DNA of 64,000 bases from contig JAICYD010000015.1 of the NCBI GenBank assembly GCA_025934375.1, positions 15,073 to 79,072 on the forward strand, read 5' to 3'. Below are positions 2,195 through 36,459 of this stretch, one piece after another. Position 1 is the stretch's first letter, and the number at the start of each line of letters is the position of its first letter. Below the pieces are notes generated by a model that saw only the letters and a list, made by a program, of their open reading frames with translations, searched no databases and was not told where the DNA came from. The translations under genes were made by a program, and so were the position numbers. This DNA is from Streptosporangiaceae bacterium (GTDB lineage Bacteria; Actinomycetota; Actinomycetes; Streptosporangiales; Streptosporangiaceae).

Positions 2195-3228
2195 GCGACA
2201 TGAGCGAAATCCCTACCCCGCAGACCGTCACCCGGGACACCCCCGAGAACGCGCCCAACCGGAACCTGGCGCTCGAACTGGCCCGCGTCACCGAGGCCGC
2301 CGCGATGGCCGCCGCCCGGTGGGTCGGGCGCGGCGACAAGAACGGCGCCGACGGCGCCGCCGTCAACGCCATGCGGGCGCTGATCAACTCGGTATCCATG
2401 AACGGGGTCGTCGTCATCGGCGAGGGCGAGAAGGACAACGCCCCGATGCTCTTCAACGGCGAGGAAGTCGGCGACGGGACGGGGGCAGACTGTGACGTGG
2501 CGGTCGACCCCATCGACGGGACCCGGCTGTGCGCGAATGGCATGCCGAACGCGGTCTCGGTGCTGGCGGTGGCCGAGCGCGGGTCGATGTATGACCCGTC
2601 GGCCGTGTTCTACATGAAGAAGCTGGCCACCGGGCCGGAGGCGGCGGCCGTGGTGGACATCGAGGCGCCGCCGGCGGTGAACATCGCCGCGGTCGCCAAG
2701 GCCAAGGGCGGCTCGCCGGCCGACGTGACCGTGGTCATCTTGGACCGCCCGCGGCACGCCTCCCTCATCGCGGCCGTGCGCGAGGCAGGCGCGCGGATCC
2801 AGCTCATCACCGACGGGGACGTGGCGGGGGCGATCATGGCGGCCCGCGCGGGTACCGGCATCGACTTGATGCTCGGCATCGGCGGCACTCCCGAGGGGGT
2901 CATCGCGGCGTGCGCGCTGAAGTGCCTCGGCGGCGTCATCCAGGGCAAGCTCGCGCCGCGGGATGAGGCGGAGCGGGCGAAGGCGCTAGACGCCGGGCAC
3001 GACCTTTCCCGGGTGCTGACGACCGACGACCTCGTGTCGTCGGACGACGTGTTCTTCGCGGCGACCGGGATCACGGACGGGGAGCTGGTGTCCGGCGTGC
3101 ACTACGCGCACGGCGGGGCGTCAACGCACTCGCTGGTGATGCGGGCGCGCTCGGGGACCATCCGGAGCATCAAGAGCGAGCACGCCCTGTGGAAGCTCCG
3201 TGCCTATAGCGCGGTCAATTACGGCTAG
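2191..3228 (+). CDS. glpX: Class II fructose-1,6-bisphosphatase
   Basis: 345 aa, with [37 protein letters not shown]...[14 protein letters not shown]...DPIDGT...GIGGTPEGV, characteristic of GlpX. The start overlaps the upstream stop codon. Confidence 0.9.
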
Positions 3229-3878
3229 CCGCGGACTTCGCGGCGGCGGTTGCCGCCGGGGAGCCAGCGGCGCGGCTTTGGCGGGGCCTTGACGATGACC
3301 TCGCCAAGCAGGGCGAAGCACCGGACCTCGATCAGGGGGGCGTCCGGGGGAAGCGGCGCGGGTGCGCGGCGGGACGCCGGGCTCCCGTAGCCGTCGCTCA
3401 GGGCCGCGGCGGGCGTGGCGCCCTTCTGCCGGCCCAGCAGCATCGTGCCGCCCACGGTTACCGCGACGCCATCGGGGACGACCAGCTTGATCGTCCCGGC
3501 GACCGCGTTGGCGTGGACCACCGTGTGCCGCTCGGTCAAGATGGCCTCGCGGAAGTCCAGGATCACTTCGCCGGCCATGGCGTAGACGGTGAGCTCCTCA
3601 GGGACCACCCAGCGGCCGTAGCGGGACGCCTTGCTGAGAGCCCCGGTGATCATCCGCCCGCCGTCCACCTGGATCGGCTGCCCCTCCGGGGGCACCAGGT
3701 CATGGGTCAGCGAGGCCAGGCTGCCCAGGGTGCGTGCGGTGAGCGCGGCGTGCACCCGGCCCGAGTGCTCCTCGTCGGTCAGCCGGCCGTCGGCGAGAGC
3801 GGCGTTCAGGACGTCCACCACTCGCTCGCGATCGGCGTCTGAGGCACGCAGGTCACGGGGTGCAGGGCGCGACGGCAT
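3225..3878 (-). CDS. DUF1707 domain protein with a C-terminal LiaF-like beta-rich domain
   Basis: N-terminal [51 protein letters not shown] is the DUF1707 signature. Confidence 0.7.
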
Positions 3879-3933
3879 GCCCTTAACGATAGCCCCACCC
3901 GGCGAGCCAGGCGACGGCCGCGCACGGCCTCGG

Positions 3934-5157
3934 TCATTGCCGGGTGATAACCCCGGATGACGAGATCTGGGCCGCGCTCGAGCCGAAGTCCTGTGCGGAC
4001 AGCTGGGCGACGAAGGCGGCGGACCCTCCGCCGGGCTCGGGCCGGCCTTGCCCGCTGAGCACGACAGGATAGAGGTGGGCGCGCTCGAACTGGCCGGCCG
4101 ATGACAGTGTCACCCGGAGGATCGCGCTCATGTCACGGTTGCCGCCGCTGGCGAAGTTGCCGTAGCCGGCGAAGTTCCCGAGGCTGTAGGCAATGAGGTG
4201 CCCCTTATAGAACTGCATGCCCCGCAGGACGTGCGGGCCACTGGCGATCACCAGGCTGGCGCCGGCGTCGATGGCCATGTGCGCGAACGCCTCGGCATTG
4301 CCACGGTCCTCGCCGAGGTAAATCTCTTCCTGGCCGGTCACGTGATCGGCGGTGGGCCCCTCCGCTCCAGCGTGCATGTACACCACGACGATCGGGGCCT
4401 GCTGGTGGGCCTGCTCGATCAGGGCGCGCGCGGCGGCGACGTCGAGGAGGCTGGCGGCCCAGTTATAGGGCGCGAATCCCAGGATCGCGACCTTGACCCC
4501 GTTCGCCGTCACGGTCGTTATCTGCCCCGGCAGGCCGGTCTGGGCCAGGCCAGCGGCGTGGATTGACTGCACAGTCTGCTGCTGGCCCGCGGCGCCGAAG
4601 TCGAAGGAGTGATTGTTGGCGTCGTTGAGTATCGTGAACCCGGCCTGCTTGAAGTACTGCGCGTAGCTGGGCGGATTGCGGAACGCGAAGCAGGTCGTGC
4701 CCGCGCCGGCGCCGCACTTGCTGCCCGGGGCGGTCGTGAGGGTGCCCTCGAGGTTGGCGAAGACAACCTGGGCACCCGATGTGAGGCTCGACTTCACCGC
4801 GTCGAAATACCCCGCCGGGTCCGGGGCCAGGTTCGGCGTATTCCCGAGCATCGTGTCGCCGACCGCGGTGATAGTCACCGAGGCCCCGGCTTTGGCGGCA
4901 GTCGAGCTCGCGCCTGGATGGGCCGTGCGGGCGGAGCCGGCGCCGGCCCGGGCCGGATCGGTCCATCCGGCTGAAGACCCGGTCAGAGCGGTCGAACTGG
5001 CGGATGAGCAGGCTGACGCGGCCAGCACGACGGCGCAGCCGACGGTAGCGCAGAGCCCTTTCAGCCCATGCCGCAAAGCGAGCCGGCGGCGGGCCAGGAT
5101 CGTTTGGTCCCCCATGAGGTCCAACTTAGCGATCCCGGGCCGCGAGCATCCGGACAT
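3934..5157 (-). CDS. CapA-family (PGA_cap, metallophosphatase-fold) lipoprotein
   Basis: Lipobox-like signal (VLAASAC), then VTITAVGDTMLG...VVFANLEGTLT...NDANNHSFDFG...VVVYMHAGAEG...SGPHVLRGMQ, typical of CapA. An alternative start lies at about 5115. Confidence 0.75.
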   Translation of the reverse strand: MSGCSRPGIAKLDLMGDQTILARRRLALRHGLKGLCATVGCAVVLAASACSSASSTALTGSSAGWTDPARAGAGSARTAHPGASSTAAKAGASVTITAVGDTMLGNTPNLAPDPAGYFDAVKSSLTSGAQVVFANLEGTLTTAPGSKCGAGAGTTCFAFRNPPSYAQYFKQAGFTILNDANNHSFDFGAAGQQQTVQSIHAAGLAQTGLPGQITTVTANGVKVAILGFAPYNWAASLLDVAAARALIEQAHQQAPIVVVYMHAGAEGPTADHVTGQEEIYLGEDRGNAEAFAHMAIDAGASLVIASGPHVLRGMQFYKGHLIAYSLGNFAGYGNFASGGNRDMSAILRVTLSSAGQFERAHLYPVVLSGQGRPEPGGGSAAFVAQLSAQDFGSSAAQISSSGVITRQ

Positions 5158-5193
5158 TCGCGGCGACTGTTATCACCCGGCTGCGCAGTCGCC

Positions 5194-5796
5194 CTACCCG
5201 GCTAGCCACGCGACGGCCGCCGCGACTGACGCGAAGGTGCCGGTGACGGGACCCTGGGCCACGCTCACCGACCCCTTGGCGACCTGGATGGCACGGGTGC
5301 CGTCCTCGCGGGTCAGCCCGAGCCAGGCCGCGGCCGACTGCCGCTCATCCCCGTCGGCGGTGGTGAAGCCGTCGTTGAAGACGGCCTCGGCAAGCTGCGT
5401 CAGCGCCCACCACTGCCTGGCCGGCGGGTCGATGCGGAAGGCGTGCACCCCGGCCGGGGACACCAGCTGGCTCATCTCGATGTTCTCGGTCGTAGGCCCG
5501 TACAGGTAGATCGTCGGCCCCGCGGTCACCCAGGACCCGCCGGCATCGACCACGAGGAACATGGCACGCGGGCCGCCGCCCAGCCGCCCCACGACCTGGG
5601 CCGCGTCCCCCACCAGCAGGCCATCCTCGCTGGCCAGGCCGCGGACCACCATGGATCGCCGGCCGCGGATGATCGCCGGGACCACGCTGTCCTCATCGTC
5701 TTCGTCCACGGTGGGCAGCAGGGCGCTCCAGGCGCCCCCGGCGACAAGGGCGATAGCGGCGGCCTCGTCGTCGGTCAGCATCAATGTCTCAGTCAT
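5194..5796 (-). CDS. Hypothetical acidic cytoplasmic protein (candidate immunity or chaperone partner of the upstream WXG-fusion protein)
   Basis: 200-aa ORF with normal GC3-rich codon usage, 13 bp downstream of the 5810..6706 gene on the same strand. No signal peptide, TM segment or recognisable domain. Confidence 0.6.
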   Translation of the reverse strand: MTETLMLTDDEAAAIALVAGGAWSALLPTVDEDDEDSVVPAIIRGRRSMVVRGLASEDGLLVGDAAQVVGRLGGGPRAMFLVVDAGGSWVTAGPTIYLYGPTTENIEMSQLVSPAGVHAFRIDPPARQWWALTQLAEAVFNDGFTTADGDERQSAAAWLGLTREDGTRAIQVAKGSVSVAQGPVTGTFASVAAAVAWLAG

Positions 5797-5809
5797 CGTC
5801 GTCTCGTCG

Positions 5810-6706
5810 TCAGGGCAGCAGAATGTTCAGGACGTGGTGGGACATCTTGCCGGCCATGGACCCGAGGCCGGGCAGGATCCCCTGGTTCCAGTCGGTGTGC
5901 ATCCCGGTTTGGACGGCGTCGTCGGCAAGCGACAAGCCGACCCCGAACAGGTAGGTATCGGGAAAGCTCTTGAGGATCTTGGAGCTCTCGTCGACGGTGC
6001 CGAAGACGTCGCCGTGGTAGGCGTCACGGGCCGCGCGGACCCCGTCAACGCCGACGGCCAGGACCGTAAGGGGGCCGGTGACCTTCTCCGCTCCTTCAGC
6101 CACGCCGGGCAGGACATCATGACCCCACTGGGTGACCTTCCAGCTCTTGAAGTCCATCAGCTTCGACTCCGGATTTCCGCTCAGCTCCCGCCAGGCACCG
6201 CGCACTTGATCCCAGTTCTTGGTGTACCGGCCCGTCACCCACTTGTTGTCGCCGAGGGCTTTCATCGCCTCGCGCGGCTTCCAGGTGAGTGGCTCGAACC
6301 TGAGGGCACGCTTGTCAGCCGCGTCATAGCCGCCGACGACCTTGCTGGCCAGCGAGCCACCCAGCAGAGCCCCGCCGACCAGGCCCGTGGACACGCCGGC
6401 GGTGCCGCCTGCGCTGGTTCCCGCGTCGGCAGCGGCCGCCGCGCTGGCCTGCTGCTGCTCGCGGATGTTGACGGTGAGCCGGGCATGCATGTCGGAAAGC
6501 GCGTGCGCGGTCGCGGTGAGCGCGGGGCGATGCCGCCCCTCCCATTCCTGGTGGAAGGTCGCGGCGGCCGGTCCGCGCCAGTACAGCGAGAGCTGGGCAG
6601 CCAGGTCCGCGGCGGCGGCGGAAATCTGGGCCAGCGCCTGCGCATGGTAGCCGAGTTGCCGCCCCAGGCTCTGCGCCTGGTCAACGTCCATTCCCTCGAA
6701 GGCCAA
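5810..6706 (-). CDS. WXG100-domain fusion protein (candidate T7-like secreted polymorphic toxin)
   Basis: The N-terminal ~95 aa is a WXG100 helical hairpin (MAFEGMDVDQ...LSLYWRGPAAATFHQEW, W-R-G motif). It is followed by an Ala/Gly linker, a glycine-zipper segment (GLVGGALLGGSLASKVVGG) and a ~190-aa domain I cannot assign. TTG start at 6706, preceded by AGGAG. Confidence 0.75.
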   Translation of the reverse strand: MAFEGMDVDQAQSLGRQLGYHAQALAQISAAAADLAAQLSLYWRGPAAATFHQEWEGRHRPALTATAHALSDMHARLTVNIREQQQASAAAAADAGTSAGGTAGVSTGLVGGALLGGSLASKVVGGYDAADKRALRFEPLTWKPREAMKALGDNKWVTGRYTKNWDQVRGAWRELSGNPESKLMDFKSWKVTQWGHDVLPGVAEGAEKVTGPLTVLAVGVDGVRAARDAYHGDVFGTVDESSKILKSFPDTYLFGVGLSLADDAVQTGMHTDWNQGILPGLGSMAGKMSHHVLNILLP

Positions 6707-6745
6707 GGTGGCTCCTGTAGCTGCTTGTTTCCCTGCTCAACGCAC

Positions 6746-6778
6746 CCGGCTGGCTGCGGGTCGCCCCGTGCCAGCCGG
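6746..6778 (-). other. Intercistronic stem-loop between the WXG100 gene and the WXG-fusion gene
   Basis: CCGGCTGGC (6746-6754) pairs perfectly with GCCAGCCGG (6770-6778) around a 15-nt loop, inside the 89-bp gap between the two genes. Confidence 0.4.
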
Positions 6779-6795
6779 CCTGCGCTGCGCGCTAA

Positions 6796-7068
6796 TCAGT
6801 AGTTCTGCGAGGCGGCGACCTGCTCGTGCAGGTTCGCCTGGGTGTGATGGACCATCGTCTCCAGGCCGGCGAGCGCGCTGTTCAGCTGGGACTGGTGACT
6901 CGGCCACTCCGAGGCGAACCGCTGGGCGTCGGGGCCCTTCCAGGCGCCCTCCAGCGAGTTGACCACGCCTGGCATTGCCGCGACGACGCTCTGCAGCTGC
7001 TGCTGGAGGCTGGTCATGTGCTGCAGGACCTGGGTGACCTGGTCGACATCCATGCCTTCAAAGGCCAT
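6796..7068 (-). CDS. WXG100 family (ESAT-6-like) small secreted protein
   Basis: 90 aa with a central W-K-G motif (LEGAWKGPDAQRFASEW) and a helix-turn-helix length typical of the family. Strong RBS (AAGGAGG). Lies directly downstream of the FtsK-family ATPase. Confidence 0.85.
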   Translation of the reverse strand: MAFEGMDVDQVTQVLQHMTSLQQQLQSVVAAMPGVVNSLEGAWKGPDAQRFASEWPSHQSQLNSALAGLETMVHHTQANLHEQVAASQNY

Positions 7069-7125
7069 GGGGTTTCCTCCTTACGTGCGCGGCGGCCTGG
7101 TGCCGCCGGCGTCTGTGGGTGTGGC

Positions 7126-10100
7126 TCATTCGGGGATGGCTATCTGGGCGAGGCGCGCCCGGCCCGCTTCCACCAGCAGGCCGCGCCCGGGCGGGAACTC
7201 GCTGCGCCGTGACTTGGGGAACTCGGTCTTGAAGACCAGCGAGCCGTCGGCCGGCTCGGGCTGCAGCGCCAGGCCGGTGCGAGCGGACTTGACCGCGTTG
7301 AGCAGCGGCCAGCTCTGGCCCATCGCGGAGGTCTCTCCCTCGGCGATGACCAGGTGGCCGCCGCTGGCGAGCTTCTTGATCAGCGACCCCAGCGGCATGT
7401 CGGCCGGGGTGCCGAGGAATTCGTTGATGCCCTCGATGACCACGGCGAACGGCCGGCCGGAATCCCCGTCGCGGGTGATCTCCGCCTCCAGCTTGGCGGC
7501 CAGCTCGGCGGCCTCCTGCGGGTCGGTGGCGACCTGCTGCCAGGCGCCCAGTCCGATCAGCGGCGACCGCCGGCCGCCGAAGAACACCGGGACGGTCCGC
7601 GGCTGCGCCCGCGTCATCGCGATGACGACCGTCGCCACGGCGGTGGTGCGCCCGCTGGCCGGCGGCCCGCAGACCAGGAACACTCCCTCGGGCCGGAAGC
7701 CCGTCGCGGTCAGCGTGTCGTCGGCGATGCCGATGACCGGGCGCCCGTCCGCGGTGGCGGGCAGCTCGCTGAGCCGGACCAGCTCGGGCAGTTGCTCGAC
7801 CCGCGGCGCGGCCGCCAGCCCCCGCCGTCGCATCGCCCCGGCGAGCTGTGAGATGGCGCGGGCCTGCCCGATGTTGTCCGGTGCTCCGCCCAGCACCGCG
7901 ACCTGGAGCTCGGCGCCGCTGAGGACCGCGCGGCCAGCCGGAGCGTCGGGGCCGAGGATGCCGCGGCCGATGCCGGCCATCGCGTAGTCGTTCTCGTCGG
8001 CCAGCCGCATGATGAGGCGGCGCTGGATCGAGGAGGTGAGCCGGGCCGGCAGCGCCGACAGGCGGTCCGCGGTGACGATGACGTGGATGCCCAGGGGGCG
8101 CCCGTCGGCGGCCAGCGCGTTCAGCGCCTCGAACCACTTGCCGCCATCGAGCAGCTCGTACTGCTGCCGGAAGGCGGAGTAGCCGTCCAGGAGCACCAGG
8201 ATGCGTGGCTCGGCGGGCCGGCTGGCCAGCCGGCGGTAGTCGGTGATCGTTCCGGCGCGGACGCTGGCGAAGCGGCGGGCGCGATCGTCGGCGATGGCCA
8301 TCAGCGTGCGCAGCAGCCGGTTGATCCGGTCCCGTTCATCGGCGGCGATGATCGCGCCCACGTGCGGGAGCTCACCGAGCATGTCCAGGCCGCGGGAGCT
8401 GAAGTCGATGCCGTACACCTGGCAGGGGCCGCCGCGCACGGTGAAGCCGGCCGCGAGCGCCAGCGAGCGCAGCGCCGTTGACTTGCCGGCGCCCCCGGCC
8501 CCGATGATCGCCAGGTTCCCGTCCCGGTCCGGGTAGAACACCGAGGTCACCTGCCGCTGCCGGTCCGGCTCGTCGATCACGCCGAAGACAAGCTCGTCGT
8601 CACGTCGGCTGGAGGGCAGCCTGGCCAGGTCGTAGGCGGTCGCGAGCTCACTCAGCCACGGCCGGCGCGGGGCGGGCAGTTCGGCCTGCGCGGCCGCGCG
8701 CCGGATCGTGTCGGCAATCCGCTGGATATCTGTCGGACGCCGCGACGTCTGCGAGGCCGCGCCGCCGTCTTCGGGTGCCCGCCAGCGCTGGCCGGCGCCG
8801 ATGACGAGCTCCTCGATGGTCACGTCCGGGCGGCGGTGCCCGGTCGTCGTCCAGCCGCCGACGTACGCGGACTGGAACGGGACCAGGCGGCCGGGCCCGG
8901 TCTTGGAGACGGCCCGGCCGGGTAGCGCGGGGTCGATGTGCGCGGCCTCGGCCGAGCCGAGGACGTCGGAGCTGTCGGCCTCGTCGGCCACTCGCAGCGC
9001 GAGCCGCAGGTTCGTGTTCGCGCGCAGGTTGTCCTTGATCACCCCGGCCGGCCGCTGGGTGGCCAGGACGAGGTGCAGGCCGAGGGAGCGGCCGCGCTGG
9101 GCGACGTTGACGACGCCGTCGACGAAGTCGGGCACCTCCTGGATGAGCGCGGCGAACTCGTCGACCACGATCACCAGGCTGGGCGGGGTGTCCGGGTCAC
9201 CGGCCTTCTCCAGCTCGGGCAGGTCCTTGACCTTCTTGCGGGCGAACAGGTGCTCGCGGTAGGTGAGCTCGGCACCCAGCGAGACCAGCGCCCGGCGGAC
9301 CAGGTGCGGGCTGAGGTCGGTGACCAGGCCGACCGTGTGCGGCAGGTGGACGCAGTCGCGGAACGCCGACCCGCCCTTGTAGTCGACGAGCAGGAAGTTG
9401 ACCCGCTGCGGGCTGTGCGCCGCGGCCATGGCCAGGATCCAGGTCTGCAGCAGCTCGCTCTTGCCCGCGCCGGTGGTGCCGCCGAGCAGCGCGTGCGGGC
9501 CGTGCGCGCGCAGGTCCAGGGCGTGCGGGCCGGCGGCGGCGGCGCCGCCGCCGGCCCGCAGGCCCCCCGGCCGGCGCCGGCCGGCGGCCGGGGCGGCCGG
9601 GCCGGTGAGGATGGAGGTGGACTCCTGCCAGCGCTCGATCACCGCGGCGGGATCCTCGGCGAGCCGCGGGTCGGTCAGCTCCAGCCAGGAGACCGAGCGC
9701 GGCAGGTCGCTGTCATCGTCGAGTACCGCGCCCGCGTCGATCAGCGGGGACAGCAGCCGGCTGAACGACGTCGCGGTGGGCAAGTCGACCGCTTCGACGC
9801 CGACGTGCTGGGTGGTGATCCCTGTCAGGCCGTCAGCGATGACCGCGGTCCCGTCACCGCGGGCGTCGAGGTAGGCGGTGCAGGCGGCGGGCAGGTGCTC
9901 CGCGCGGGGGGCGACCCACAGGCAGTGGATGCCCGCCGCCGGGCCGACCCGGCTGAGCTCGACCAGGCGGGCGCGGTCAGCCTGGGCGCGGGCGTCGATC
10001 ATCACGACCACCGAGGCGCCGCCGGCACTGGCGGCGCCCGCCCCGCCCGGAGGAAGCGCCCGCGAGCGGGCCAGTTCCTCGAGCTGGCCGAGCAGCGCGG

Positions 10101-19100: not shown

Positions 19101-22100
19101 ACCGCGCGGACGATGACCCGTGCCTGCGAGGGGGCCGTGGAGCCGTCGGTGGCGCCGTAGGTGAGCTGGGCCGGGGGGTCGGCAGGGCTGGCGGGCGCCT
19201 TCAGGTAGACAAAGGACCCGTTGAGGCGGGCCCCAGGGGGCAGTGACTTGTTCGTCTGGTCCAGCGGGGCGACGGTGACCGGGTCGCCGGGGGCGATGAC
19301 GTCGTTGCCGAGGACGTCGACGTGGACGGTGGCGCCCGGCGGCGCGGACAGGACGTCGTCGACGGCGACCGGGGGCTGCGGCGGGCCGGGCGGCAGCACC
19401 GCGATGCTCACCTGCCCGGTCCCGGTCATCCCGTACGGGTCGGTCACCTGGTAGGTGAACGTGTCCGTCCCCGAGGAGGCGGGATAGGACTGGTAGCGGA
19501 TCGAGTTCGGGGTGACCGCCACGATGCGGCCCAGGGTCGGCGCGCCGGTGACGGCGGTGACGGTCGTCGAGTCGCCGTCGGGGTCGATGCCGTACGTCGG
19601 GATCTCGATGACCGCGACGTCCCCGGCCGTCTCGCGGGTCGTGACGGCCTGCGGGCTGGGTGCCTGGTCCGGGTTGGCCTTGGACGGGGGCGGTTCGACG
19701 GTGACGAACAGCTGGCCGGTCGCGGTGGTGCCGCTGGCGTCGGTCGCGACGTAGCTCACGGTCGTCTCCTGCTGGGTGGTGACGTTCGCCGGCGCGTCGA
19801 CCCGGACGGTGCCGCCCTGGTTGCTGGCGAACAGCCCCGCGATCGGCGGGGTGGCCTGCGGCGGGGTGGTGCCGAGGCTGAGCGCGAGCCCGGCCGAGCT
19901 GCTGTCGTTGGCCAGCACCGCGACGGCGGCGCTGTCGCCGGCCCTGATCGTGACGGAGGCGTCCTGCGTGGTGACCTGGTCGTCGCTGGTGGCCGGCTCG
20001 GCGGTGATGCTCACCGTCCCGGTCGCCGTGGCGTACCCGTTGCTGACGATGTAACTGGCGGTGCTCGCCGAGCCTGGCACCGGGTTGTCGGCGCTGATCC
20101 GCAGCCAGTGCTGGCTGACGACCGCGACGTGGATGCCGGCGTCGGTGGAGCTGGCGCTGGTGACGCCGAGGACGTAACCCTGCGGGTCGTAGTCGTTGGC
20201 CAGCACGTCCACCAGGGCGGGCTGCTGGCCGTGCAGGACCGCCAGGTCCGGGACCGGCACCGGCGGCTTGGGGGTGCCCGGCTTCGGGCTGGCCTGCACG
20301 CGGATCGTCCCGGTGGACGGGACGGTCGCGCCGAAGGCGGCCTGGTAGGTCAGGAAGTACGCGCCCGGCTGCTTGGCGGTGAAGGTGACCGTCCCGGCGT
20401 GCACGTCGGTGCTGACGGTCGCGCCCGCCGCCTGGGTCACCAGCCGGGCCGGGCCGGCGATGGTCAGGTGCGCCTGCGGGTCCGTCGGGTCGGCACCCGG
20501 GGTGTCGTTGCCGAGCGGCTTGATGGTGGCTGGCATGCCGACGATGGCCTGGGCGACGTCTGGCTCCGCCTTCGGCGACACCAGGTGCGTGCTCGTGGTG
20601 GCCAGCACGGTGACGGTGAGCGGCTTGCCCGGTTGCGGCGTGGCGGAGATGCCGTCGGTGACCGCGTAGTGGATGGTCGCGGCGCCGGTAGAGGTGACCT
20701 GGGGGGCGGTGTAGGAAATCGCTCCGCCGCTGGCGATGCCGACAGTGCCGCCGCCGCCGGCGCCGGTCACGGAGAGCGTCTGGCCGCTGGGGTCGCTGTT
20801 GTCATCGACGTACAGCGGGTCGCCGTCAGGGTCGCGCCAGTCGCCGACGACCGCGATGATCAGGTGCCCCCCGGAGGCGACGCTGAGGTCGGGGAGGTCG
20901 TAGTTGTCGCGCAGGCGCGGCGGGGAGTTCTCGCCGGCCTGCCGGGGCTGCAGGGTGACCTGCGCTGAGGCCGTGTGGCCCTTCCCGTCGTCGATGGTGT
21001 ACTCGAAGTGCGCGTTCGTGGTTAGCCCGGGCCCGACGGTAGCGAGCACGGTCTGTCCGTCGGGCGCGACGGCGACGCTGACCTGCGACTGATCCGGCGG
21101 TCCGACCTTGACCACGGCGAGCACGGCGCCCAGCGGCCCGCTGTCGTTGTCGAGCACGTGGACCACCGTGGTGCGTCCGGGGCGGACGCCCTGCGTGTCC
21201 GGCTTGGCCTGGAGCGGCGTGGCCTCCGGGCTGGCGATGGGACTGTTGCTGTCCTTGTTGTCCCGCTTGATGAACTGCTGCCACTGCGGCTGGATCCGGA
21301 TGACCTTGGAGTCAAGCAGGAAGACGTCGCCGTTGGCCGTGTCGTTCAGCACCACCTGGTTGTGGTTGACGCGGAAGACCAGGTCCGGGTTGTCCGAGCC
21401 GACGAGGAACGGCGCCACCATGGCCGGCGTCCCGGCGCAGGCCCGGACGTAGGTGGCACTCCCCCCGTTGGCCCAGGCGGCGTGCGCGCAGCCGCTGACC
21501 TGAACCGGGGCGGTCGCTGTGCCGGTGCGCCCGGAAGTGACCGTGTTCCACGTGCCGTTGGCCAGGTTGATCTGGTACAGCGCCGTTGAGGTGGCGGCGT
21601 AGGCGTACGGGCTGGCCGCGGAGGACTGCTGCAGGGCCAGGCCGGCCGGGCTGGGCAGCGGCGAGACGGGGCGGTTGCTGGCCGGCAGGTAGATCTTCCC
21701 GCTGGTGATGTCGGCGACGACGGGGACGTCCCCGATCGTCGTGACCTGAAGCTGGTCGCCACCGGGGAGGTTCAGGCTGGTGGCTTGCGCTTTGCCCCAG
21801 CTGGTGCCGTCGGCGGCGGCGGGGTATCGGCGCAGCAGCCCCCCGCCAGCGACGAGGATGTCGCTGTCACTGTCGACCGCGACGGCCGCGTTGCCGGGGA
21901 GCGTCGCCTTGTCCAGTGGCGTGGAACTAGCCGCGACGGACTGGACGCTCGCGCCGGGCGCCGTCATCGGCGCCGCGCGGAGCTTGTGGTCGGCGCCGAT
22001 GACGGCGAACGCGGCGCCGTTGAGCGCGGCCTGGGCATTGGAGGTGATCGGCGCCTGCGTGCCGTCGTCGGTGAACGCCGTCGTGGCCGGGTTGACGGAG

Positions 22101-22390
22101 TACACTTTTCCGCCGCTGTAGGTGGCGACCAGGCCGCCCGCCTGCCACACGTTCATGTCCCCGGCCGCGGTGGCCGGGACAATCGCGCCGTCCACCTGGT
22201 CGATCGGCTTGTTGAAGCGGCCGATCTGCCCGTCCGCCTTATCGGTGACCCACACGCCGCCGTCGTTGAGGCTCAGGTGCTGGACGGGGAAGCCCTGCGA
22301 GCGTGAGGCCAGCGCCGCCAGCGTGACCATGGCGACGCACAGCACTATGGGCGTGCCCAGGCGACCTGGGCGCGTGAATACGCGGCGCAC
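16139..22390 (-). CDS. Giant secreted or surface protein with Ig/cadherin-like repeats and five FN3 domains
   Basis: 2083 aa, GTG start, N-terminal signal or anchor (IVLCVAMVTLAALASRSQG).
- Repeated beta-sandwich modules carry VLxNDxDP-type motifs (VLDNDSGPLG, PLGNDTPGADP, VLANDYDPQG, VLGNDVIAPGDP, VLKNDDDPVG).
- About five FN3-like modules follow (e.g. VTLTWPAAPDGGSPVQQY, ITVSWAAGQDNGNAITGY).
- The C-terminus is a Cys-containing beta-sandwich. Confidence 0.85.
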   Translation of the reverse strand: MRRVFTRPGRLGTPIVLCVAMVTLAALASRSQGFPVQHLSLNDGGVWVTDKADGQIGRFNKPIDQVDGAIVPATAAGDMNVWQAGGLVATYSGGKVYSVNPATTAFTDDGTQAPITSNAQAALNGAAFAVIGADHKLRAAPMTAPGASVQSVAASSTPLDKATLPGNAAVAVDSDSDILVAGGGLLRRYPAAADGTSWGKAQATSLNLPGGDQLQVTTIGDVPVVADITSGKIYLPASNRPVSPLPSPAGLALQQSSAASPYAYAATSTALYQINLANGTWNTVTSGRTGTATAPVQVSGCAHAAWANGGSATYVRACAGTPAMVAPFLVGSDNPDLVFRVNHNQVVLNDTANGDVFLLDSKVIRIQPQWQQFIKRDNKDSNSPIASPEATPLQAKPDTQGVRPGRTTVVHVLDNDSGPLGAVLAVVKVGPPDQSQVSVAVAPDGQTVLATVGPGLTTNAHFEYTIDDGKGHTASAQVTLQPRQAGENSPPRLRDNYDLPDLSVASGGHLIIAVVGDWRDPDGDPLYVDDNSDPSGQTLSVTGAGGGGTVGIASGGAISYTAPQVTSTGAATIHYAVTDGISATPQPGKPLTVTVLATTSTHLVSPKAEPDVAQAIVGMPATIKPLGNDTPGADPTDPQAHLTIAGPARLVTQAAGATVSTDVHAGTVTFTAKQPGAYFLTYQAAFGATVPSTGTIRVQASPKPGTPKPPVPVPDLAVLHGQQPALVDVLANDYDPQGYVLGVTSASSTDAGIHVAVVSQHWLRISADNPVPGSASTASYIVSNGYATATGTVSITAEPATSDDQVTTQDASVTIRAGDSAAVAVLANDSSSAGLALSLGTTPPQATPPIAGLFASNQGGTVRVDAPANVTTQQETTVSYVATDASGTTATGQLFVTVEPPPSKANPDQAPSPQAVTTRETAGDVAVIEIPTYGIDPDGDSTTVTAVTGAPTLGRIVAVTPNSIRYQSYPASSGTDTFTYQVTDPYGMTGTGQVSIAVLPPGPPQPPVAVDDVLSAPPGATVHVDVLGNDVIAPGDPVTVAPLDQTNKSLPPGARLNGSFVYLKAPASPADPPAQLTYGATDGSTAPSQARVIVRAVTGAKLAPIANDDIATPASPSAATVTVNVLKNDDDPVGSASDLKLSWAPAGVTKQGPSLVIPVKANPREVPYQVTAPDGLTATAVVFVPGTATSAIRLKEGARITLPPRGSVTVPLASVLTDSFGRPLRITTTDQLISSPAGNITVTTHQDTSFQVQAQGTYAGPGAVSVQVYDGSTIQDPKGHVATLTIPVQVGVDTPVLRCPSGNGNALQVVEGGASATYNISLLCHVWTDTTIATAAPRYAAGGWTTPVTGVTATIVGNGTGLRLLAASSAKAGDRGTLRITADGAAASSGGLLSVTVVAAPPPSGRAVSLATNAGQPAFADLAQYVSSPLPQPAISIPDAPKVARASVTVSGSRLTVTPEPSFHGTLQFVVTVADEPGRVDRQIQLAVSVSVIARPGAPGPPSAKTSSHTAQVFFSPAAPNGAPVQLYTVFTDRQGHQCAASPCTISGLANGHSYDVYVTATNSAGQGAASLHGTAKPDEVPSQITGLNTTPGDQQVTLTWPAAPDGGSPVQQYLAEVSPAPASGASLQKLAPSARSVTFTGLTNGTSYSFRVQASNSLGPGPWSAAVPMTPYGKPLTMGAPTATGAAVPNPATTRAITVSWAAGQDNGNAITGYTVTPYSSGSSGGPWTAGTPAAVGGGTTSTSFTVTNDGTYYEYTVTATNAAGDSTPSPQSSPPVQGIAPPDAPATPSAADHDASTGKGYDGAIQVTFTAPNGNGGSITSVEYGLNGQSTSGTWNGPFTAGASVTQTASGLANGSNYVVYVRGCNSLACGPWSSASNQVTPYGAPGAPTNVTAASSGTTISYSWGGGAGNGRPLDHYIYCIDGANCQNSTGTTASGSYGYSSSHNVTVYAVDSAGQQSAGATSNTATTAAPPSPTVSISRGPNEPTATCTSGSGCSAVHVIGNNFTPGATLTYTCSDNHGGTWWTDTRAWGGALVKADGSGHTDFETNCVWGNNNWSLSNWTLTINVSDGSKSASGSYTG

Positions 22391-22609: not shown

Positions 22610-24469
22610 TTAGCCACAGGCAGCGCTTGAATACGGGGAGGACTGCCCGGTGCCCGCGCGCACCACACGTACCTGGATGCACACTCGCCCCGGGCCGGAT
22701 GCCGGAAGGGAGATCGGCTCGCGCGCGACGGTCCGCGGCGAGCCGGCGTCTCCGGCGCGCTTCCACTGAAAGGAGTCTCCCGTCCGGGCATTAGCGTAGG
22801 TCCACGAAAAGTGGACCTCGCCGCCGCTCACCGTCGGGGTGGCTATCGTCGGCGTCCCTGGCGGGGCACCACCGGGACCGATCGCGCTTTGGTCGGCGCC
22901 GTTGCCGAGTGCGGTGGTCGCCGGAGCCTGCGGCGGCCCGCCGCCCGCGGCGCCGTGCAGCGCCACCGCTGCGCCGACGGCGGCGACCGCCGCGACCAGC
23001 ACGCCGCCGATCACCAGGCCAGCGCGCCGCCGGGGGCCGGGCGAGACGGTCTCGTCCTCCAAGCCGGCCACGGCCGGCGGCCCCGTCCTCAAGGGCCGTC
23101 CGGGGGTGAAGCCCGGGCTGGACGTTCCGCCGAGCAAGCGCGCGTCTCCCCGCCGCATCGTGGTGTCCGGTTCGCCGGGCAGCGGCGGCAGCACCCGCTC
23201 GCGGGCCGGCGGGGGCGACCCGAAGGCGCCTTCATCCCAAGGGGCGACGCGCCGCGGGCTGCGCTGCCGGGTCACGTCGTCATCAGACGGCCGGGACGGC
23301 GGGCCAGGGAACGGCTCCTGGTACACCTCCCGGCGGGAATCGGCGAAGCCCTGGGGGTCCAGCACGCGCGGGCCACGCTGCCGGGTGACATCGTCATTCC
23401 CGCCGCGAAGCGGCCAGCCGTCGGGGTTAGCAGTGCCGGGGTTGACTGGGCCGGGGTTGACTGGGCCGGGGTCCCAGGGGCTGGGTCGCTGACCCCGCCT
23501 GGCCACGGTGGCGTCCCCGAAGCGGGCGCCATCCCCGGGCCGGGCCGGGAAGCCGTACCCGGGAGTGTGCGGCCCGGGGCCGCCGGCCTGCGGGGGGTCA
23601 TCGTCGGGGACGATCACCTGCGTGTGCGGCAGGTGCAGTTCCTGCTCGATCGCCTGGAGCTCACGGGCCAGGTCAAGCGCGCGCTGCGGGCGCGCGTCGG
23701 GGTTCTTCGCCAGCGCCTGGCGCAACAGCCGCTCCAGGCTGTCGGGGACGTCGGCTCGCCCGGTGCGCGGCGGGCTATCGGCCTGGACGCGGCGCATCAA
23801 GGCGAACGCCGTGTTGTCCCCGCCCGGCACCTCATACGGTGACCGGCCGGCCAGCAGGTGCCACAGGGTCGCGCCGAGCGAGTACACGTCAGAGCGCTCA
23901 TCGCCATCGGAGGTGCCGAACAGCACCTCCGGCGGCGACCACGGCACCGACATCCCCTCGGCCCCGCCGGCGCCCTTGGCGCTCGCGATGCCGAAGTCGG
24001 TCAGCGCCGGGGTGCCGAACTTGCCGGTCAGGATGTTGTGCGGCTTGATGTCCCGGTGCAGGATCCCGCCCCGGTGACTCGTCTCCACCGCGCCGGCGAT
24101 CTGCACGCCGACCTTCAGCACCTCGGAGACGGGGAAATGGCCGCGCCGCGCCCGCACCCCCAGGTTGGGCTGGGAGTAATACTGCATGACCAGGTACGGG
24201 CGGCCATCGGGCGCGATGTCGGCGGTGAACACCGACGCGATGTTCGGGTGATCGGCCAGCCCCGCCATGGCGTTCGCCTCGGCGGTGAACTGGCGGGCGA
24301 CCGCGTCGGTCAGCCCCGCCTCGTTGAGCACCTTCACCGCGACCTCGCGCTTGGGCCGCTGCTGCTCATACAGGAAGACCTCGGCGTTCCCGCCCGAGCC
24401 GATGTGGTGCAGGTACCGGTAGCCCGGCAGCTCAGGCGGCGGCTGCTTACGGGGTGGTCCGGCGCTCAT
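22610..24469 (-). CDS. Membrane Ser/Thr protein kinase with an FN3-like ectodomain
   Basis: Hanks kinase motifs are intact (GSGGNAEV, VAVKVL, HRDIKPHNIL, DFGIA, SPPE). A Pro-rich linker, one TM helix (LVIGGVLVAAVAAVGAAVAL) and a ~90-aa beta-rich C-terminus follow. Confidence 0.9.
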   Translation of the reverse strand: MSAGPPRKQPPPELPGYRYLHHIGSGGNAEVFLYEQQRPKREVAVKVLNEAGLTDAVARQFTAEANAMAGLADHPNIASVFTADIAPDGRPYLVMQYYSQPNLGVRARRGHFPVSEVLKVGVQIAGAVETSHRGGILHRDIKPHNILTGKFGTPALTDFGIASAKGAGGAEGMSVPWSPPEVLFGTSDGDERSDVYSLGATLWHLLAGRSPYEVPGGDNTAFALMRRVQADSPPRTGRADVPDSLERLLRQALAKNPDARPQRALDLARELQAIEQELHLPHTQVIVPDDDPPQAGGPGPHTPGYGFPARPGDGARFGDATVARRGQRPSPWDPGPVNPGPVNPGTANPDGWPLRGGNDDVTRQRGPRVLDPQGFADSRREVYQEPFPGPPSRPSDDDVTRQRSPRRVAPWDEGAFGSPPPARERVLPPLPGEPDTTMRRGDARLLGGTSSPGFTPGRPLRTGPPAVAGLEDETVSPGPRRRAGLVIGGVLVAAVAAVGAAVALHGAAGGGPPQAPATTALGNGADQSAIGPGGAPPGTPTIATPTVSGGEVHFSWTYANARTGDSFQWKRAGDAGSPRTVAREPISLPASGPGRVCIQVRVVRAGTGQSSPYSSAACG

Positions 24470-26112
24470 CCGGCGACCTCAAAGCGGAAGTAAATCCCAT
24501 CGGCCAGGGTCACCACGGTTGCGTTGGGGATGAGGACGGGCTCTTTGGGCCTGAGCCGCTCGGGCGGCCGGCCCGGGAACTCCACCAGCGTCCCGTTGGT
24601 GGACTCCAGGTCCGTCAGGAGCACGTGCCAGCCATCGAGGGTAATGGTGAGGTGGGTCCGGGAGATCTCGCCGTCGCCGCTGGGCAGCTTGACCACGTGC
24701 GGACGCTCGTCCCCGTTCAGCTCCGAGCGCGGGTTGCGGCCCATGACGACGCTGCGGTCCAACGTGATCACGTCACCGGTGGACAACCGCAGCAAGCCGA
24801 GCGCCGGGCGGGATACCAGGACCGGCTCTTGCGGTGGCAGGGGCTCGCCGCAAACCCGGCAGGCGACGCTGTTCGGCGGGCTGACATGCCCGGCCAGGCA
24901 GAGCAGGCCCTGCACGATCGGGCCGATGCGGTCGACGAGCGCCGGGACGGGGACGGCCTGGGCCAGGCTGGCGCGCCGGATGGTGTTGGTGTTCTCCGGG
25001 TTGCCTGGATCGGGCGGGGTCCCGTTGGCGCTGCCGGGGAAGGGCTCACCGCCGGGAAGGGGGCCGCTCGCGGGGAAGCTCCCGGGCGGGAGGGGCGGCG
25101 GGACCGTGATGGTGGAGATCAGCGCGCGCGGCGGGAGCGTCGCGGTCGGGTCCAGGGGCGCGGCCGGCTGGGCAGGCAGAGACGCTGGCAGGGGCGGTGG
25201 GGCGCTTTCCCAGGGGACGCGGTCGATCATGCCGCCGCCCCCGGGGCCGTCTAGCGGGACGGGCGCCGCCGGAGGGGGCGGGGCGGAAGGGGCGAGCGGC
25301 CATTCGGCGGGAGGGGCGCTTTCCGGGCCTAGGGTCCCCGGGACCGGGCCTCCCAGGACCGGGCCTGCCGGCAAAGGACTCGCCGGTACAGGGCTTCCCA
25401 GGATCTGGGCGTGCGGTTCGGGCGGCGACCCGAAGCCGGGAAACGAGGACCCGCCGGGGAAGGAGAAAAGGGAGTCGCCCCCGCTGTCGGGCCGGATCGC
25501 GGCATCCTCAACCGAGCGCATCTGAGTCGCCTCGAAGAGGAAGTCGTAACCGGGGTCACCAGCCTCGTCGCCGGCGGGGAGCACGGGAGCGGGAGCGGGA
25601 GCGGGCCAGCCGGGAGCGGGAGCGGTGACGGGCATCGGGCGAGACTGCTGGCCCGCGCCCGACAGGTCCACGATCACGGAGCTGGCCAGGAAGATCCCGG
25701 CGGACGCCGGCAGCCGCAATGAGCTCTCTGTGGCCGGCTCGCCGATCACCACGCACGTGACGCCGGCCGGCATCGGGTAATCAAGCCAGGTCGCCAGCCC
25801 GGCCCCGGTAACGCGCTGCGCGCTGCCGTCGAGGTCCTCCACGACGGCGCCGCCGCTGCCCCGGCAGATCAGGTGCCGCCGCCCGTCACCACCGCAGGCC
25901 AGCAGGGCGAAGTCCGGCATGTGCGCGAACCCGAACTGCAAGACCCCGGCGAACAGCTCTTCCAGCCGTGCTTGCGGCATTGGCCCGGCCAGGCCCATCC
26001 GCCGCCAGATCTCGGCGACGACCGCCGAATCCGGCGAGGCGTCGATCAGCACCCAGCACGAATCGCCAGCGATCGCGGTGCGGCCACCCGGTACGTAGCT
26101 GACGTCAGCCAT
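24466..26112 (-). CDS. FHA-domain protein with zinc-ribbon and an unassigned N-terminal domain
   Basis: C-terminal FHA (VVMGRNP...GEISRTHLTITLDGWHVLLTDLESTNGTLV), preceded by a CxxH...CxxC ribbon (CLAGHVSPPNSVACRVCGEPL) and a long Pro-rich linker. The start is set at ATG 26112 (MADVSYVPGG...). The longer ORF to 26385 runs inside the PP2C gene. Confidence 0.8.
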   Translation of the reverse strand: MADVSYVPGGRTAIAGDSCWVLIDASPDSAVVAEIWRRMGLAGPMPQARLEELFAGVLQFGFAHMPDFALLACGGDGRRHLICRGSGGAVVEDLDGSAQRVTGAGLATWLDYPMPAGVTCVVIGEPATESSLRLPASAGIFLASSVIVDLSGAGQQSRPMPVTAPAPGWPAPAPAPVLPAGDEAGDPGYDFLFEATQMRSVEDAAIRPDSGGDSLFSFPGGSSFPGFGSPPEPHAQILGSPVPASPLPAGPVLGGPVPGTLGPESAPPAEWPLAPSAPPPPAAPVPLDGPGGGGMIDRVPWESAPPPLPASLPAQPAAPLDPTATLPPRALISTITVPPPLPPGSFPASGPLPGGEPFPGSANGTPPDPGNPENTNTIRRASLAQAVPVPALVDRIGPIVQGLLCLAGHVSPPNSVACRVCGEPLPPQEPVLVSRPALGLLRLSTGDVITLDRSVVMGRNPRSELNGDERPHVVKLPSGDGEISRTHLTITLDGWHVLLTDLESTNGTLVEFPGRPPERLRPKEPVLIPNATVVTLADGIYFRFEVAG

Positions 26113-26926
26113 TGCCAGGCTGGCCGGGCAGCTCACCTCGTGGCAGCGTCGTGACGTCCACGCGGGTTTCGTCCAGGGCCCCGCCGGAGCCACCCAGGTC
26201 GCCGAAGCCGACGACCTCGGCCACGATGACGGTGACGTTGTCGTGGCCGCCGGCGTCCTCAGCGGCGGCGACCAGCGCGGTGGCCGCCACCTGCGGGCTG
26301 CCGGAGGCGAGGAGCACCGCGATCCGCTCGTCGGGGACCTCGGTGTACAGACCGTCGGAGCACACCAGGAACCGGTCCCCGGCATTCGCGGGCAGCAGCC
26401 AGTAGTCGGGCCGGGGGCCCGGGTCGGTGCCCAGCGCGCGGGTCACGATGTTGCGCCGTGGGTGGACGCGCGCCTGGTCGCGGGTGATCACGCCAGCCAG
26501 GACCAGTTCCTGGACCTCGGAATGGTCCACGGTGACCTGGTCAAGCCGCCCCTCGACGAGCCGGTAGACCCGGGAGTCGCCGACGTTGAAGACCATGAGG
26601 TGGTCACCGCCGCCGGTCTCCAGCAGGGCCAGCCCGGTGATCGTGGTGCCCATGCCCTTGGCGCCCTCGTACGTGACGATGGCGCGGTTGGCGGCATCCA
26701 GGGCGGCGAGCACTCCATCGGCGGTCAGCGGCCGGACCCGGGCCGCGGAGGTCAGCGTGTCGATGGCGAGCCTGCTCGCCAGGTCCCCCGCGCCATGGCC
26801 GCCCATGCCATCTGCCACCGCGAACAGCGGCGGTATGGCCAGATAGCTGTCCTCGTTCACCCGGCGGACCCGGCCCGGGGATGTCGCCGCGCTATGCCAG
26901 AACCGGGTCATGGGGTGGCAGCGCAC
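26105..26926 (-). CDS. PP2C-family Ser/Thr phosphatase
   Basis: GRVRRVNEDS...FAVADGMGGHGAG...GTTITGL...NVGDSRVY...LVCSDGL...DNVTVIV are the canonical PPM motifs. Confidence 0.9.
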   Translation of the reverse strand: MRCHPMTRFWHSAATSPGRVRRVNEDSYLAIPPLFAVADGMGGHGAGDLASRLAIDTLTSAARVRPLTADGVLAALDAANRAIVTYEGAKGMGTTITGLALLETGGGDHLMVFNVGDSRVYRLVEGRLDQVTVDHSEVQELVLAGVITRDQARVHPRRNIVTRALGTDPGPRPDYWLLPANAGDRFLVCSDGLYTEVPDERIAVLLASGSPQVAATALVAAAEDAGGHDNVTVIVAEVVGFGDLGGSGGALDETRVDVTTLPRGELPGQPGNG

Positions 26927-33438: not shown

Positions 33439-33456
33439 TCCTGGTATCTTCCGGCT

Positions 33457-36400: not shown

Positions 36401-36459
36401 CCACGATCTTGCCGATCATCGCCAACATGATGCAGTCCTTCAAGGAGGCCAGCTCCTGA
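33457..36459 (+). CDS. Ser/Thr protein kinase with a long low-complexity linker, TM helix and extracellular sensor-like domain
   Basis: Hanks domain (GRGAMGVVW, VAIKEV, HRDVKPSNVL, DFGIA, APE). About 450 aa of Ala/Pro/Gly/Ser-rich sequence follow, then a TM helix (ILLGVLAVIVVAAVVVAATLLG) and a ~190-aa globular C-terminus. Confidence 0.85.
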   Translation: MSPMTGRVIAGRYRLAEPIGRGAMGVVWRAKDQLLDRDVAIKEVRFNEALGEVERSNAYKRTLREARTAARLSHRGVVTVFDVAEEDGRPWIVMELIRSRSLDELLATDGPMPPGRVARIAQQLLSALAHAHSAGVLHRDVKPSNVLIATGGLDERAVLTDFGIAQFEGDPRLTQTGMVMGSPGFTAPERIRGGDATPASDLWSLGATIYAASEGRGPYEQRGGAITTMTAIINEDAPVAPSADRLQPVIATLLRRDPMRRPPAAVAASMIAEVLPLLPETRGGRGGTVLSQSPGSARRSPLAGPVPPPAPSTPARGQGAGSVPPPAPSGVAATGIDPPAPKAAAARAAEAAKAAEAAKAAKSDGAGEGAGAAAAAGGAAGVAAPKGTAEAKGSAGAAAKVDAAPSGTPDAADAIVSQAAGAEDAGAASGSGSASGPDSVEEAPDAALDEAGSPEAALSEAVPEKAGSAKEAPEKGVPDKAGSAKEAALAQAVASDGSSAGEPELEPTARGIPVARVPVPAKPTPDKAVPGQADAGESGAAPAAASSAAAGSSDTDQYAKTSLTNSGAILAAAESRSAAAASSPAGNAAGSGAAGHEVTVKASTAAPASATPSGSAAPEPTVKVSTPSTPSATVKATTPQAPPAPKPAPPQPAPPQPSEKDAWWSNAYQTQGPSFSPSQNKPATPHTPAQPGPASPFSQPTHYAPPGRYTSPGRPPGPATTPHSPQNYNYQYPAGSNPDGSGGRVESTSPPRKGSAGKKILLGVLAVIVVAAVVVAATLLGKRHASTPNAANSSTPAGSNGPSTSASAAAGGPVPPVTRDTPTVVRAIDDHSDTVPAGYTPYTLHPSSAGTTAGFELDVPPGWQVEQQTPQRIFFNAPDGLSNVEVDLTPHTRPDMVAEAQFLKQQTVSQGKFSQYKELELGPENVLGTRGALWRFDWTNPKTGRQMRVDDMLFVLQTPNGPQSYAIFMTAPDGKAAGSWNATILPIIANMMQSFKEASS

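Follow-up and report, generated by a model that had tools for sequence, protein, structure and literature searches.

A polymorphic WXG100 fusion protein with a candidate EspG-fold partner in an Esr-like locus of a Streptosporangiaceae bacterium

Described systems and the locus

A preprint of September 2026 described, in oral Actinomycetales, a pathway of ‘epibiont sensing and response’ (Esr). It is built from EsrA, a filament of Ig repeats that is exported by Sec and bears a beta-propeller, together with MoxR, vWA, transglutaminase, kinase, phosphatase and FHA proteins. Of 3502 Esr loci, 40% adjoin esx genes, and FHA is sometimes fused to EccC. In the Esr-regulated Esx system of Schaalia odontolytica, the effector pair AesA/AesB combines a small helical partner with a larger protein, in which a targeting bundle is followed by a variable region rich in Gly and by a C-terminal part with a conserved motif (Wang et al., bioRxiv 10.64898/2026.09.08.750141). 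The subject here is a related locus in a stretch of 64 000 nucleotides (the window) from a Streptosporangiaceae bacterium, contig JAICYD010000015.1 of assembly GCA_025934375.1. The gene at 5810..6706 of the window encodes a fusion of a WXG100 hairpin, an Ala/Gly-rich linker and a C-terminal domain (CTD). It is flanked upstream by a gene for a stand-alone 90-residue WXG100 protein (6796..7068) and one for an EssC/EccC-type ATPase (7126..11532), and downstream by a gene for a 200-residue acidic protein (5194..5796); every gene between 26926 and 5194 lies on the minus strand. The explanation favoured here, with slightly better than even confidence, is that the fusion is a polymorphic effector exported by EssC, accompanied by a cognate partner of EspG fold and placed under Esr-like control.

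The window shares with Esr-Esx loci the MoxR, DUF58 and transglutaminase set, the kinase, PP2C phosphatase and FHA-protein genes, the adjoining esx genes, and an FHA domain fused to EssC. It also resembles AesA/AesB in protein architecture. A small helical partner is encoded beside a larger protein with a helix-bundle N-terminus and a Gly-rich region, a short C-terminal motif occurs, the C-terminal part cannot be modelled by AlphaFold, and both genes have EccC and a sensor set of Esr type as neighbours. The differences are equally specific. By its description AesB has an FXG turn, whereas the turn here is canonical WXG. The Gly-rich stretch of AesB is about 160 residues long and the present one about 35. 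The AesB C-terminus is charged and disordered, whereas the CTD of the window is rich in aromatics (8.9%) and falls on the folded side of a charge–hydropathy plot. The AesB motif reads GYNVP; here it is G-x-P-N-P-F in relatives and missing from the window allele. The EspG-fold partner goes unmentioned in the Esr preprint, and the host order, Streptosporangiales, is not among the Esr carriers named there.

The PE/PPE/EspG trio of mycobacterial T7SSa, one subtype among type VII secretion systems (T7SS), offers a second parallel. It too couples a hairpin protein of about 90–100 residues to a longer WxG protein with a variable C-terminal extension, has a cytoplasmic EspG-fold protein for the longer partner (a binding that would apply here as well), and is encoded beside EccC. 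The window proteins differ in carrying neither the PE/PPE signature nor YxxxD/E; the ATPase bears FHA and YukD-like domains; and the partner has 200 residues and is undetected by Pfam EspG, whereas EspG has about 270–300. We know of no mycobacterial EspG that co-varies allele by allele with PPE C-termini. EspG-fold chaperones are known or predicted in several T7SS variants, and EsaE escorts the toxin EsaD (PMC11217815).

The LXG toxins of T7SSb (EsaD/EsaE/EsaG, TelA-LapA3-LapA4) likewise have a conserved helical N-terminus and a strain-variable C-terminus, small WXG-like genes upstream, an EspG-fold chaperone (EsaE) for some, and variable blocks within conserved DNA. Their C-termini comprise many unrelated toxin folds, whereas one family is found here; a separate immunity gene accompanies them, and no candidate for one was found here apart from the partner gene; and the present host is an actinomycete. 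By gene content the window is also close to T7SSd (Garrett et al. 2024, PMC11217815). The cluster of that subtype encodes an FHA-ATPase (TsdC) whose phosphothreonine motif is intact, along with the WXG100 protein TsdA, the membrane kinase TsdD and a very large Ig-repeat protein exported by Sec; TsdH was not identified in the window, though no search was aimed at it. The MoxR, DUF58, transglutaminase, PP2C and FHA-protein genes are additional here, as are the second WXG gene and the EspG-fold gene. TsdI of T7SSd has a C-terminal membrane helix that the Ig-repeat protein of the window lacks. T7SSd is reported without a ubiquitin-like protein (PMC11217815), whereas a YukD-like segment is possibly fused to EssC here.

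The fusion protein and its hypervariable block

The fusion protein has 298 residues. Its gene starts with TTG, 6 nucleotides past an AGGAG ribosome-binding site, and this start is credible because orthologues, found in about 25 loci, begin with ATG at the same position. GC content at third codon positions (GC3) is 0.85, like that of the neighbouring genes. Residues 1–95 (6422..6706) are a WXG100 hairpin, with its turn at W43-R44-G45. The W and G of the turn are kept in the family alignment with rare exceptions; in a distant relative (L025:2014-5785) the turn reads W-Q-A. The single protein scores under the profile cut-offs, with E 0.0047 and 17.6 bits against Pfam WXG100 (PF06013; cut-off 27.3) and E 0.0012 and a score of 19 against TIGR03930 (cut-off 44.85). 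As a family the signal is firmer. Sixteen of 19 fusion members match WXG100 at E<=1 (best E 7e-6), and a profile of the family matches solved EsxA structures in a PDB profile search, EsxA 3zbh at 2e-4. The AlphaFold2 (AF2) model places helices at 8–42 and 46–95 with a predicted local distance difference test score (pLDDT) of about 70–85. Foldseek, whose result was used for the hairpin alone since the CTD model was unusable, superposes it on the streptococcal WXG100 protein GBS1074/SAG1039 with a template-modelling (TM) score of 0.86–0.88 and a root-mean-square deviation (rmsd) of 1.2–1.4 A. The hairpin and the TTG start behind AGGAG thus stand as a first-pass annotation, made from the letters alone, had read them. 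An LXG domain (PF04740) was matched by one of the 19 members, at E 0.18; the hairpin measures about 95 residues, against about 200 for that domain.

The CTD (residues 131–298, 5813..6316) belongs to a new and rare family. Nothing matched its approximately 170 residues in Pfam, NCBIfam, PADLOC or a PDB profile search, just as the first-pass annotation had matched it to no toxin family, and no known toxin domain or catalytic motif was found in the CTDs by Pfam or PDB. A word-indexed search of 5.8 billion proteins returned five and then 10 members. All are WXG-fused proteins of about 300 residues except P0009, which, with 194 residues on a 2.2-kb contig, is probably a fragment. A full HMMER search of 1.8 billion representatives with the CTD alone recovered itself and one relative; two further matches, to the repetitive proteins P0007 and P0008, were taken to be spurious. 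The loci were drawn from species-representative genomes and from ENA, NCBI, Logan and JGI contigs. Their sources are uncultured Trebonia-like soil actinomycetes, the named ones being ‘Trebonia sp.’ or uncultured Actinomycetes metagenome-assembled genomes (MAGs); Trebonia is placed in Streptosporangiales. About 25 related loci carry one and the same CTD family, in fusions of 251–323 residues, and no different toxin fold is ever substituted for it. The last 110 residues or so form a conserved core, H-x-Y...V-D...A-L-K...Y-L-A-G-x-D...D-W-x-x-G-x-P-N-P-F...N-F-x-x-D-Y-x-P, and roughly half of the members also have a middle block of about 60 residues. Every intact readable locus has the order EssC, a WXG protein of 90–91 residues, the fusion and a gene of about 200 codons, and MoxR-DUF58-transglutaminase precede EssC where the sequence can be read.

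The variable part of the locus is sharply delimited. L031, a contig of a very close relative with the same local synteny (PGA_cap, DUF1707, glpX), aligns with the window at about 95% DNA identity over 8835..6397 and again over 5065..2416. Protein identities on the two sides are high: 96.5% for the EssC C-terminus, 98.9% for the small WXG protein, 91.1% for fusion residues 1–90, 92.5% for PGA_cap, 96.4% for DUF1707 and 98.5% for GlpX. Between them, fusion residues from 91 to the end fall to 37.8%, and the 200-residue protein to 57.8% (70% at the DNA level). In sliding 60-nucleotide bins identity stays at 90–100% down to 6445 and is 68% at 6444..6385; across 6504..6325 it runs from 95% through 68% to 48%. 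It is 30–65% in the CTD and 55–78% in the 200-residue protein gene, and has returned to 95% by 5033. The upstream edge of the block therefore lies at about 6385..6444, overlapping the end of the hairpin and the linker, and the cassette of linker, CTD and partner gene spans some 1.3 kb, at about 5100..6440, by blastn and sliding identity against L031. An assembly chimera was considered as the source of the block and discarded, each allele having been assembled again from separate sequencing runs: that of the window is found in four independent metagenome assemblies at 99.9%, and that of L031 in two. The cassette is closely followed on its downstream side by a gene of the PGA_cap family (3934..5157, minus strand), whose N-terminus is lipoprotein-like. 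The window and L031 both have this gene, and the syntenic L030 does not; its N-terminal region (5094..5213) is rearranged between the first two.

Other pairs of loci behave in the same way. Between L015 and L017 the WXG part is 89%, the CTD 38% and the partner 84% identical; between L017 and L018 the values are 91%, 22% and 68%. Against the syntenic Trebonia MAG L030, the window retains 86% identity in GlpX, 79% in EssC, 59% in the hairpin, 55% in the partner and 37–40% in the CTD. Two full EssC/WXG/fusion/partner cassettes, L001 and L004, stand 65 kb apart on one MAG contig (CAVPIM010000017.1). They are 88% identical in EssC, 96% in the small WXG protein, 89% in the partner, 78% in the fusion hairpin and 62% in the rest of the fusion, which is the most diverged part of the cassettes and contains a 41-residue indel. 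The ratio of non-synonymous to synonymous divergence (dN/dS) is 0.46 for this CTD pair, compared with 0.17–0.32 for the remaining genes, and the fusion gene has a dS 2–4 times as high as its flanks. Each of these two cassettes is followed by an open reading frame (ORF) of about 770 codons (769 and 778); that of L001 resembles, as judged by eye, a fusion of FHA domain and ABC transporter. Among 190 locus pairs, CTD distance follows partner distance when hairpin distance is controlled for (partial r 0.53), and shows no correlation with hairpin distance when the partner is controlled for (0.09). The signal is carried mostly by the conserved CTD core. Linker, CTD and partner are thus a hypervariable unit with its own history, set on a conserved delivery module.

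How far this amounts to a polymorphic toxin system depends on the feature considered. A conserved N-terminus with a C-terminus that differs between close strains is present, with sharp boundaries. Diverse recognisable toxin domains are not, the CTDs being all of one family, and arrays of orphan tips or immunity genes are likewise missing, with a single cassette per locus in about 25 loci. The first-pass annotation had recognised a polymorphic toxin/immunity layout and asked whether orthologous loci keep the WXG module while exchanging the C-terminal domain. Its layout of delivery module, linker and variable CTD beside EssC holds, and close relatives do keep the WXG part (90–91%) while the post-linker part falls to 22–38% and the downstream gene changes along with it; unrelated domains are not swapped in, and the downstream ORF has a predicted EspG fold. 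As judged from alignments, the polymorphism appears to stay inside one CTD family, whose alleles diverge or are replaced.

The same data bear on the proposal that the fusion is not a payload and is instead a structural or core part of a minimal secretion machine, for example an EsxA-like protein with an envelope tail. Wherever the locus is intact, the fusion gene, EssC and the small WXG gene stand in strict 1:1 relation, the other known T7SS membrane components are missing from the vicinity, and most members have a semi-hydrophobic Gly/Ala segment after the hairpin. We nevertheless judge a structural role improbable: the C-terminus is the fastest-evolving piece of the locus, with large indels and 22–38% identity in near-identical backgrounds, the hydrophobic segment is not conserved, and it is substrates that typically have a dedicated partner of EspG fold.

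The window allele itself departs from its family. It lacks G-x-P-N-P-F...D-Y-x-P, the best-kept C-terminal motif, together with a second conserved block of about 14 residues, and its CTD is only 14–37% identical to the others. These are the signs to be expected of a decaying, non-functional copy, a reading that we consider very improbable for this allele. A frameshift was sought behind the missing PNPF motif and rejected, as both deletions are in frame and other frames give no rescue. The ORF is intact, its GC3 matches that of its neighbours, the allele recurs nearly unchanged in the four independent assemblies mentioned above, and the nearest allele, P0006/L030, has the same layout.

The linker (residues 96–130, 6317..6421) is rich in Gly (27%) and Ala (25%) and contains the GxxxG-type run GLVGGALLGGSLASKVVGG, both as annotated at first pass. 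The run had been taken as a hint of membrane targeting. Its best 19-residue Kyte–Doolittle mean is 1.24, under membrane-helix grade; in 18 relatives the best such segment scores 1.07 to 1.80 and in several lies outside the linker. The Gly-rich segment is variable or missing among relatives, some of which have no hydrophobic segment there at all. Runs of [GAS]xxx[GAS] are expected by composition in an Ala/Gly-rich stretch, and the membrane-targeting idea therefore gains little support. The membrane-depolarising toxins TspA of Staphylococcus aureus (PMC7456083) and TelE of Streptococcus gallolyticus (PMC10434224), both T7SS substrates with Gly-rich or zipper segments, are reported as proposed or shown to be membrane-active. 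The TelE zipper is reportedly C-terminal, conserved and needed for toxicity, whereas the Gly-rich run here stands in the linker and is not conserved. TsaI, an immunity factor that is a membrane protein, has no counterpart here.

The stand-alone WXG100 protein exceeds the Pfam gathering score (WXG100, E 1.2e-6), is encoded in every intact locus and is the presumed heterodimer partner of the fusion. Its first ten residues, MAFEGMDVDQ, are exactly those of the fusion, as had been noticed; the idea built on this identity, that the delivery module is a duplication of the substrate, does not hold in its recent form. Over these ten codons (30 nucleotides) the two genes show six differences, of which five are synonymous. 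Because the two hairpins are 34% identical overall and both paralogues retain M-x-[FL]-E-G-M-D-V at every locus, the paralogy is old, and the shared N-terminus is best read from the alignments as a selected motif rather than the mark of a recent duplication.

The downstream partner

The 200-residue protein (5194..5796) is acidic (pI 4.3) and cytoplasmic, and its gene begins 13 nucleotides past the fusion stop; in L008, L010, L030 and L031 the two genes overlap or abut stop to start. Its AF2 model, built on a 64-sequence alignment, is confident (pLDDT 93.5, predicted TM score 0.88). In a Foldseek search of the PDB the top 14 matches are all EspG1, EspG3 or EspG5 of the mycobacterial systems ESX-1, -3 and -5 (probability 0.99–1.0, E 2e-5 to 3.5e-3, TM on the query 0.38–0.48), and the matches that follow have a probability of 0.15 or less. 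The model thus predicts an EspG-chaperone fold, an assignment made at the level of fold. Assignment to EspG by sequence was tried and rejected, with neither PF14011 nor a PDB chain matched. The protein forms 108 homologue clusters, stands beside the fusion gene in all intact loci and is always single-copy. Since CTD and partner divergence are correlated and the genes are adjacent, the partner is taken to be specific to the CTD. No third gene is conserved downstream in the loci compared, and there is accordingly no separate immunity candidate.

Copies of the partner without a fusion gene were found only in L007 (190 residues) and L033 (123 residues), at one chromosomal site and beside an EssC fragment. 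The module remnants lie at L007:8900-10573 and L033:5669-7372, and L033 also contains a PP2C gene. The L007 copy was considered as an orphan immunity gene, a reading rejected because the same site in L033 holds a 123-residue remnant. Orphan copies of two lengths at a single site therefore point to decay rather than retention, and these remnants show that the system can be lost.

The first-pass annotation had read this small acidic ORF as the immunity gene of a classical toxin/immunity pair, in which the CTD would be a toxin, membrane-active or enzymatic, directed at rival bacteria and neutralised by the ORF product in the producer and its kin. Its description of the ORF as acidic and 13 nucleotides downstream is exact. 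The pairing of a conserved N-terminus with a hypervariable C-terminus, and a downstream gene that changes along with it in near-identical genomes, are as expected of such a pair; so are the abutting or overlapping genes, a partner that is small, acidic and cytoplasmic, the intact orphan partner left in L007 after loss of EssC and the WXG gene, and the existence of the glycine-zipper T7SS toxins TspA and TelE. Several observations tell against the function assigned. The partner has the predicted fold of an EspG chaperone. It diverges far less than the CTD (84% against 38% for L015/L017). The CTDs form one family without known toxin domain or catalytic motif, about 25 loci contain no orphan CTD or immunity arrays, and the orphan partner is a decaying remnant. 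The Gly-rich segment is missing in some relatives and below membrane-helix hydrophobicity, and a soluble cytoplasmic antidote would be an unlikely defence against a toxin that strikes the membrane from outside. On balance we regard a classical toxin/immunity pair as the less likely reading, but as a competitor to be taken seriously.

Secretion and signalling genes, and a proposed pathway

The ATPase gene product matches Pfam FtsK_SpoIIIE and FHA and TIGR03928/03924/03925. Its FHA domain (residues 99–184, 10981..11236) keeps the GR/SRRH/NG phosphothreonine-binding residues. Ahead of it, residues 4–77 (11302..11532 region) match YukD weakly (E 0.0097, profile positions 3–74 of 76), so that a ubiquitin-like YukD segment is possibly fused to the EssC N-terminus. 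Upstream follow a TgpA-like transglutaminase (Transglut_core, 11529..13937), a DUF58 protein (13934..15124), a MoxR ATPase (AAA_3/bpMoxR, E 8e-12; 15134..16126) and a 2083-residue Ig-repeat protein (16139..22390). DUF58 is a family that we take to be vWA-like. The Ig-repeat protein has a signal-like N-terminus, a region of about 350 residues towards that end without Pfam match, six Big_9 and three fn3 domains, and no hydrophobic C-terminal segment. Beyond it are encoded a membrane Ser/Thr kinase (22610..24469) whose hydrophobic segment lies at residue 483, a protein with an unassigned N-terminal and an FHA C-terminal domain (24466..26112) and a PP2C phosphatase (26105..26926). The transglutaminase stop overlaps the EssC start (ATGA), so that the signalling set is translationally coupled to EssC, and the same upstream gene order is found in L006, L008 and L030. 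In L025, where EssC is missing from the surrounding 3 kb, the fusion and EspG-like genes directly adjoin those for PP2C, the FHA protein and the kinase, a layout that supports a functional tie of fusion and partner to the phospho-signalling module. Elsewhere in the window are a gene for a second Ser/Thr kinase of 1006 residues (33439..36459, plus strand) and a 704-codon ORF of high GC3 without Pfam match (51433..53547, minus strand).

The spacer between the two WXG genes is filled by a GC-rich hairpin (6735..6790, minus strand; minimum free energy -44.4 kcal/mol, z -3.4). A hairpin of this kind, without U-tract, occupies the spacer in six of six loci, the others being L001:10277-10339, L002:10277-10346, L006:9931-10000, L008:9122-9209 and L010:9111-9215, and their sequences are unrelated. 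A scan of 3800..7400 for canonical terminators and promoters found none. The hairpin may act within the operon as an attenuator or may stabilize the mRNA, and in either way fix the ratio between the two WXG proteins.

From this arrangement we infer a pathway of WXG heterodimer formation, partner binding, export, phosphorylation control and antagonism. (i) The fusion hairpin would pair with the 90-residue WXG100 protein, forming a four-helix secretion signal that is read by EssC. (ii) In the cytoplasm the EspG-fold protein would bind its cognate CTD, keeping it soluble, secretion-competent and perhaps inactive, and would stay behind on export. (iii) A surface sensor would trigger threonine phosphorylation, which would act through the FHA domain of EssC to release the effector. 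(iv) Outside the cell the CTD would be the payload, a strain-specific antagonistic effector.

A number of results weigh against this pathway. A YxxxD/E export motif was sought in the small WXG protein and is absent. EccB, EccD, EccE, MycP, EssA, EssB and EsaA were not found in positions 1–55 kb of the window. The likeness of the partner to EspG is confined to the fold, with a TM of 0.47 on the query and an rmsd of 7.5–14 A, and none of its 64 family members matches Pfam EspG (PF14011) at E<=10. The fusion was modelled with a nine-sequence alignment that leaves the CTD at a pLDDT below 50, and its all-helical appearance in that model is a low-confidence guess. The window allele is missing the family's best-kept motif, as described above. 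Finally, joint replacement of CTD and downstream gene is equally what a toxin/immunity pair would show. The most specific form of the exported-effector explanation is put forward tentatively, as less likely than not: that in soil Streptosporangiales EspG-fold proteins serve as allele-specific partners, whether chaperone, antidote or both, of a WXG100 effector fired by a threat sensor through MoxR-vWA-transglutaminase, kinase and FHA to EssC.

Almost nothing is known of type VII cargo in actinobacteria other than mycobacteria. The locus is a compact module that combines an ATPase with two WXG proteins and a partner of EspG fold; the presumed payload and its partner are delimited by the recombination-bounded hypervariable block. 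It cautions against taking every small acidic ORF past a variable C-terminus for an immunity gene. If the proposed pathway is correct, a new effector family would be added and EspG-fold proteins would be seen to co-diversify with a single substrate allele. Diversification would proceed by the swapping of a ‘CTD + EspG-like’ cassette, a mode undescribed for type VII systems of Actinomycetota. Defence of the Esr-Esx type would then reach free-living soil Streptosporangiales, and its payloads would be strain-specific weapons.

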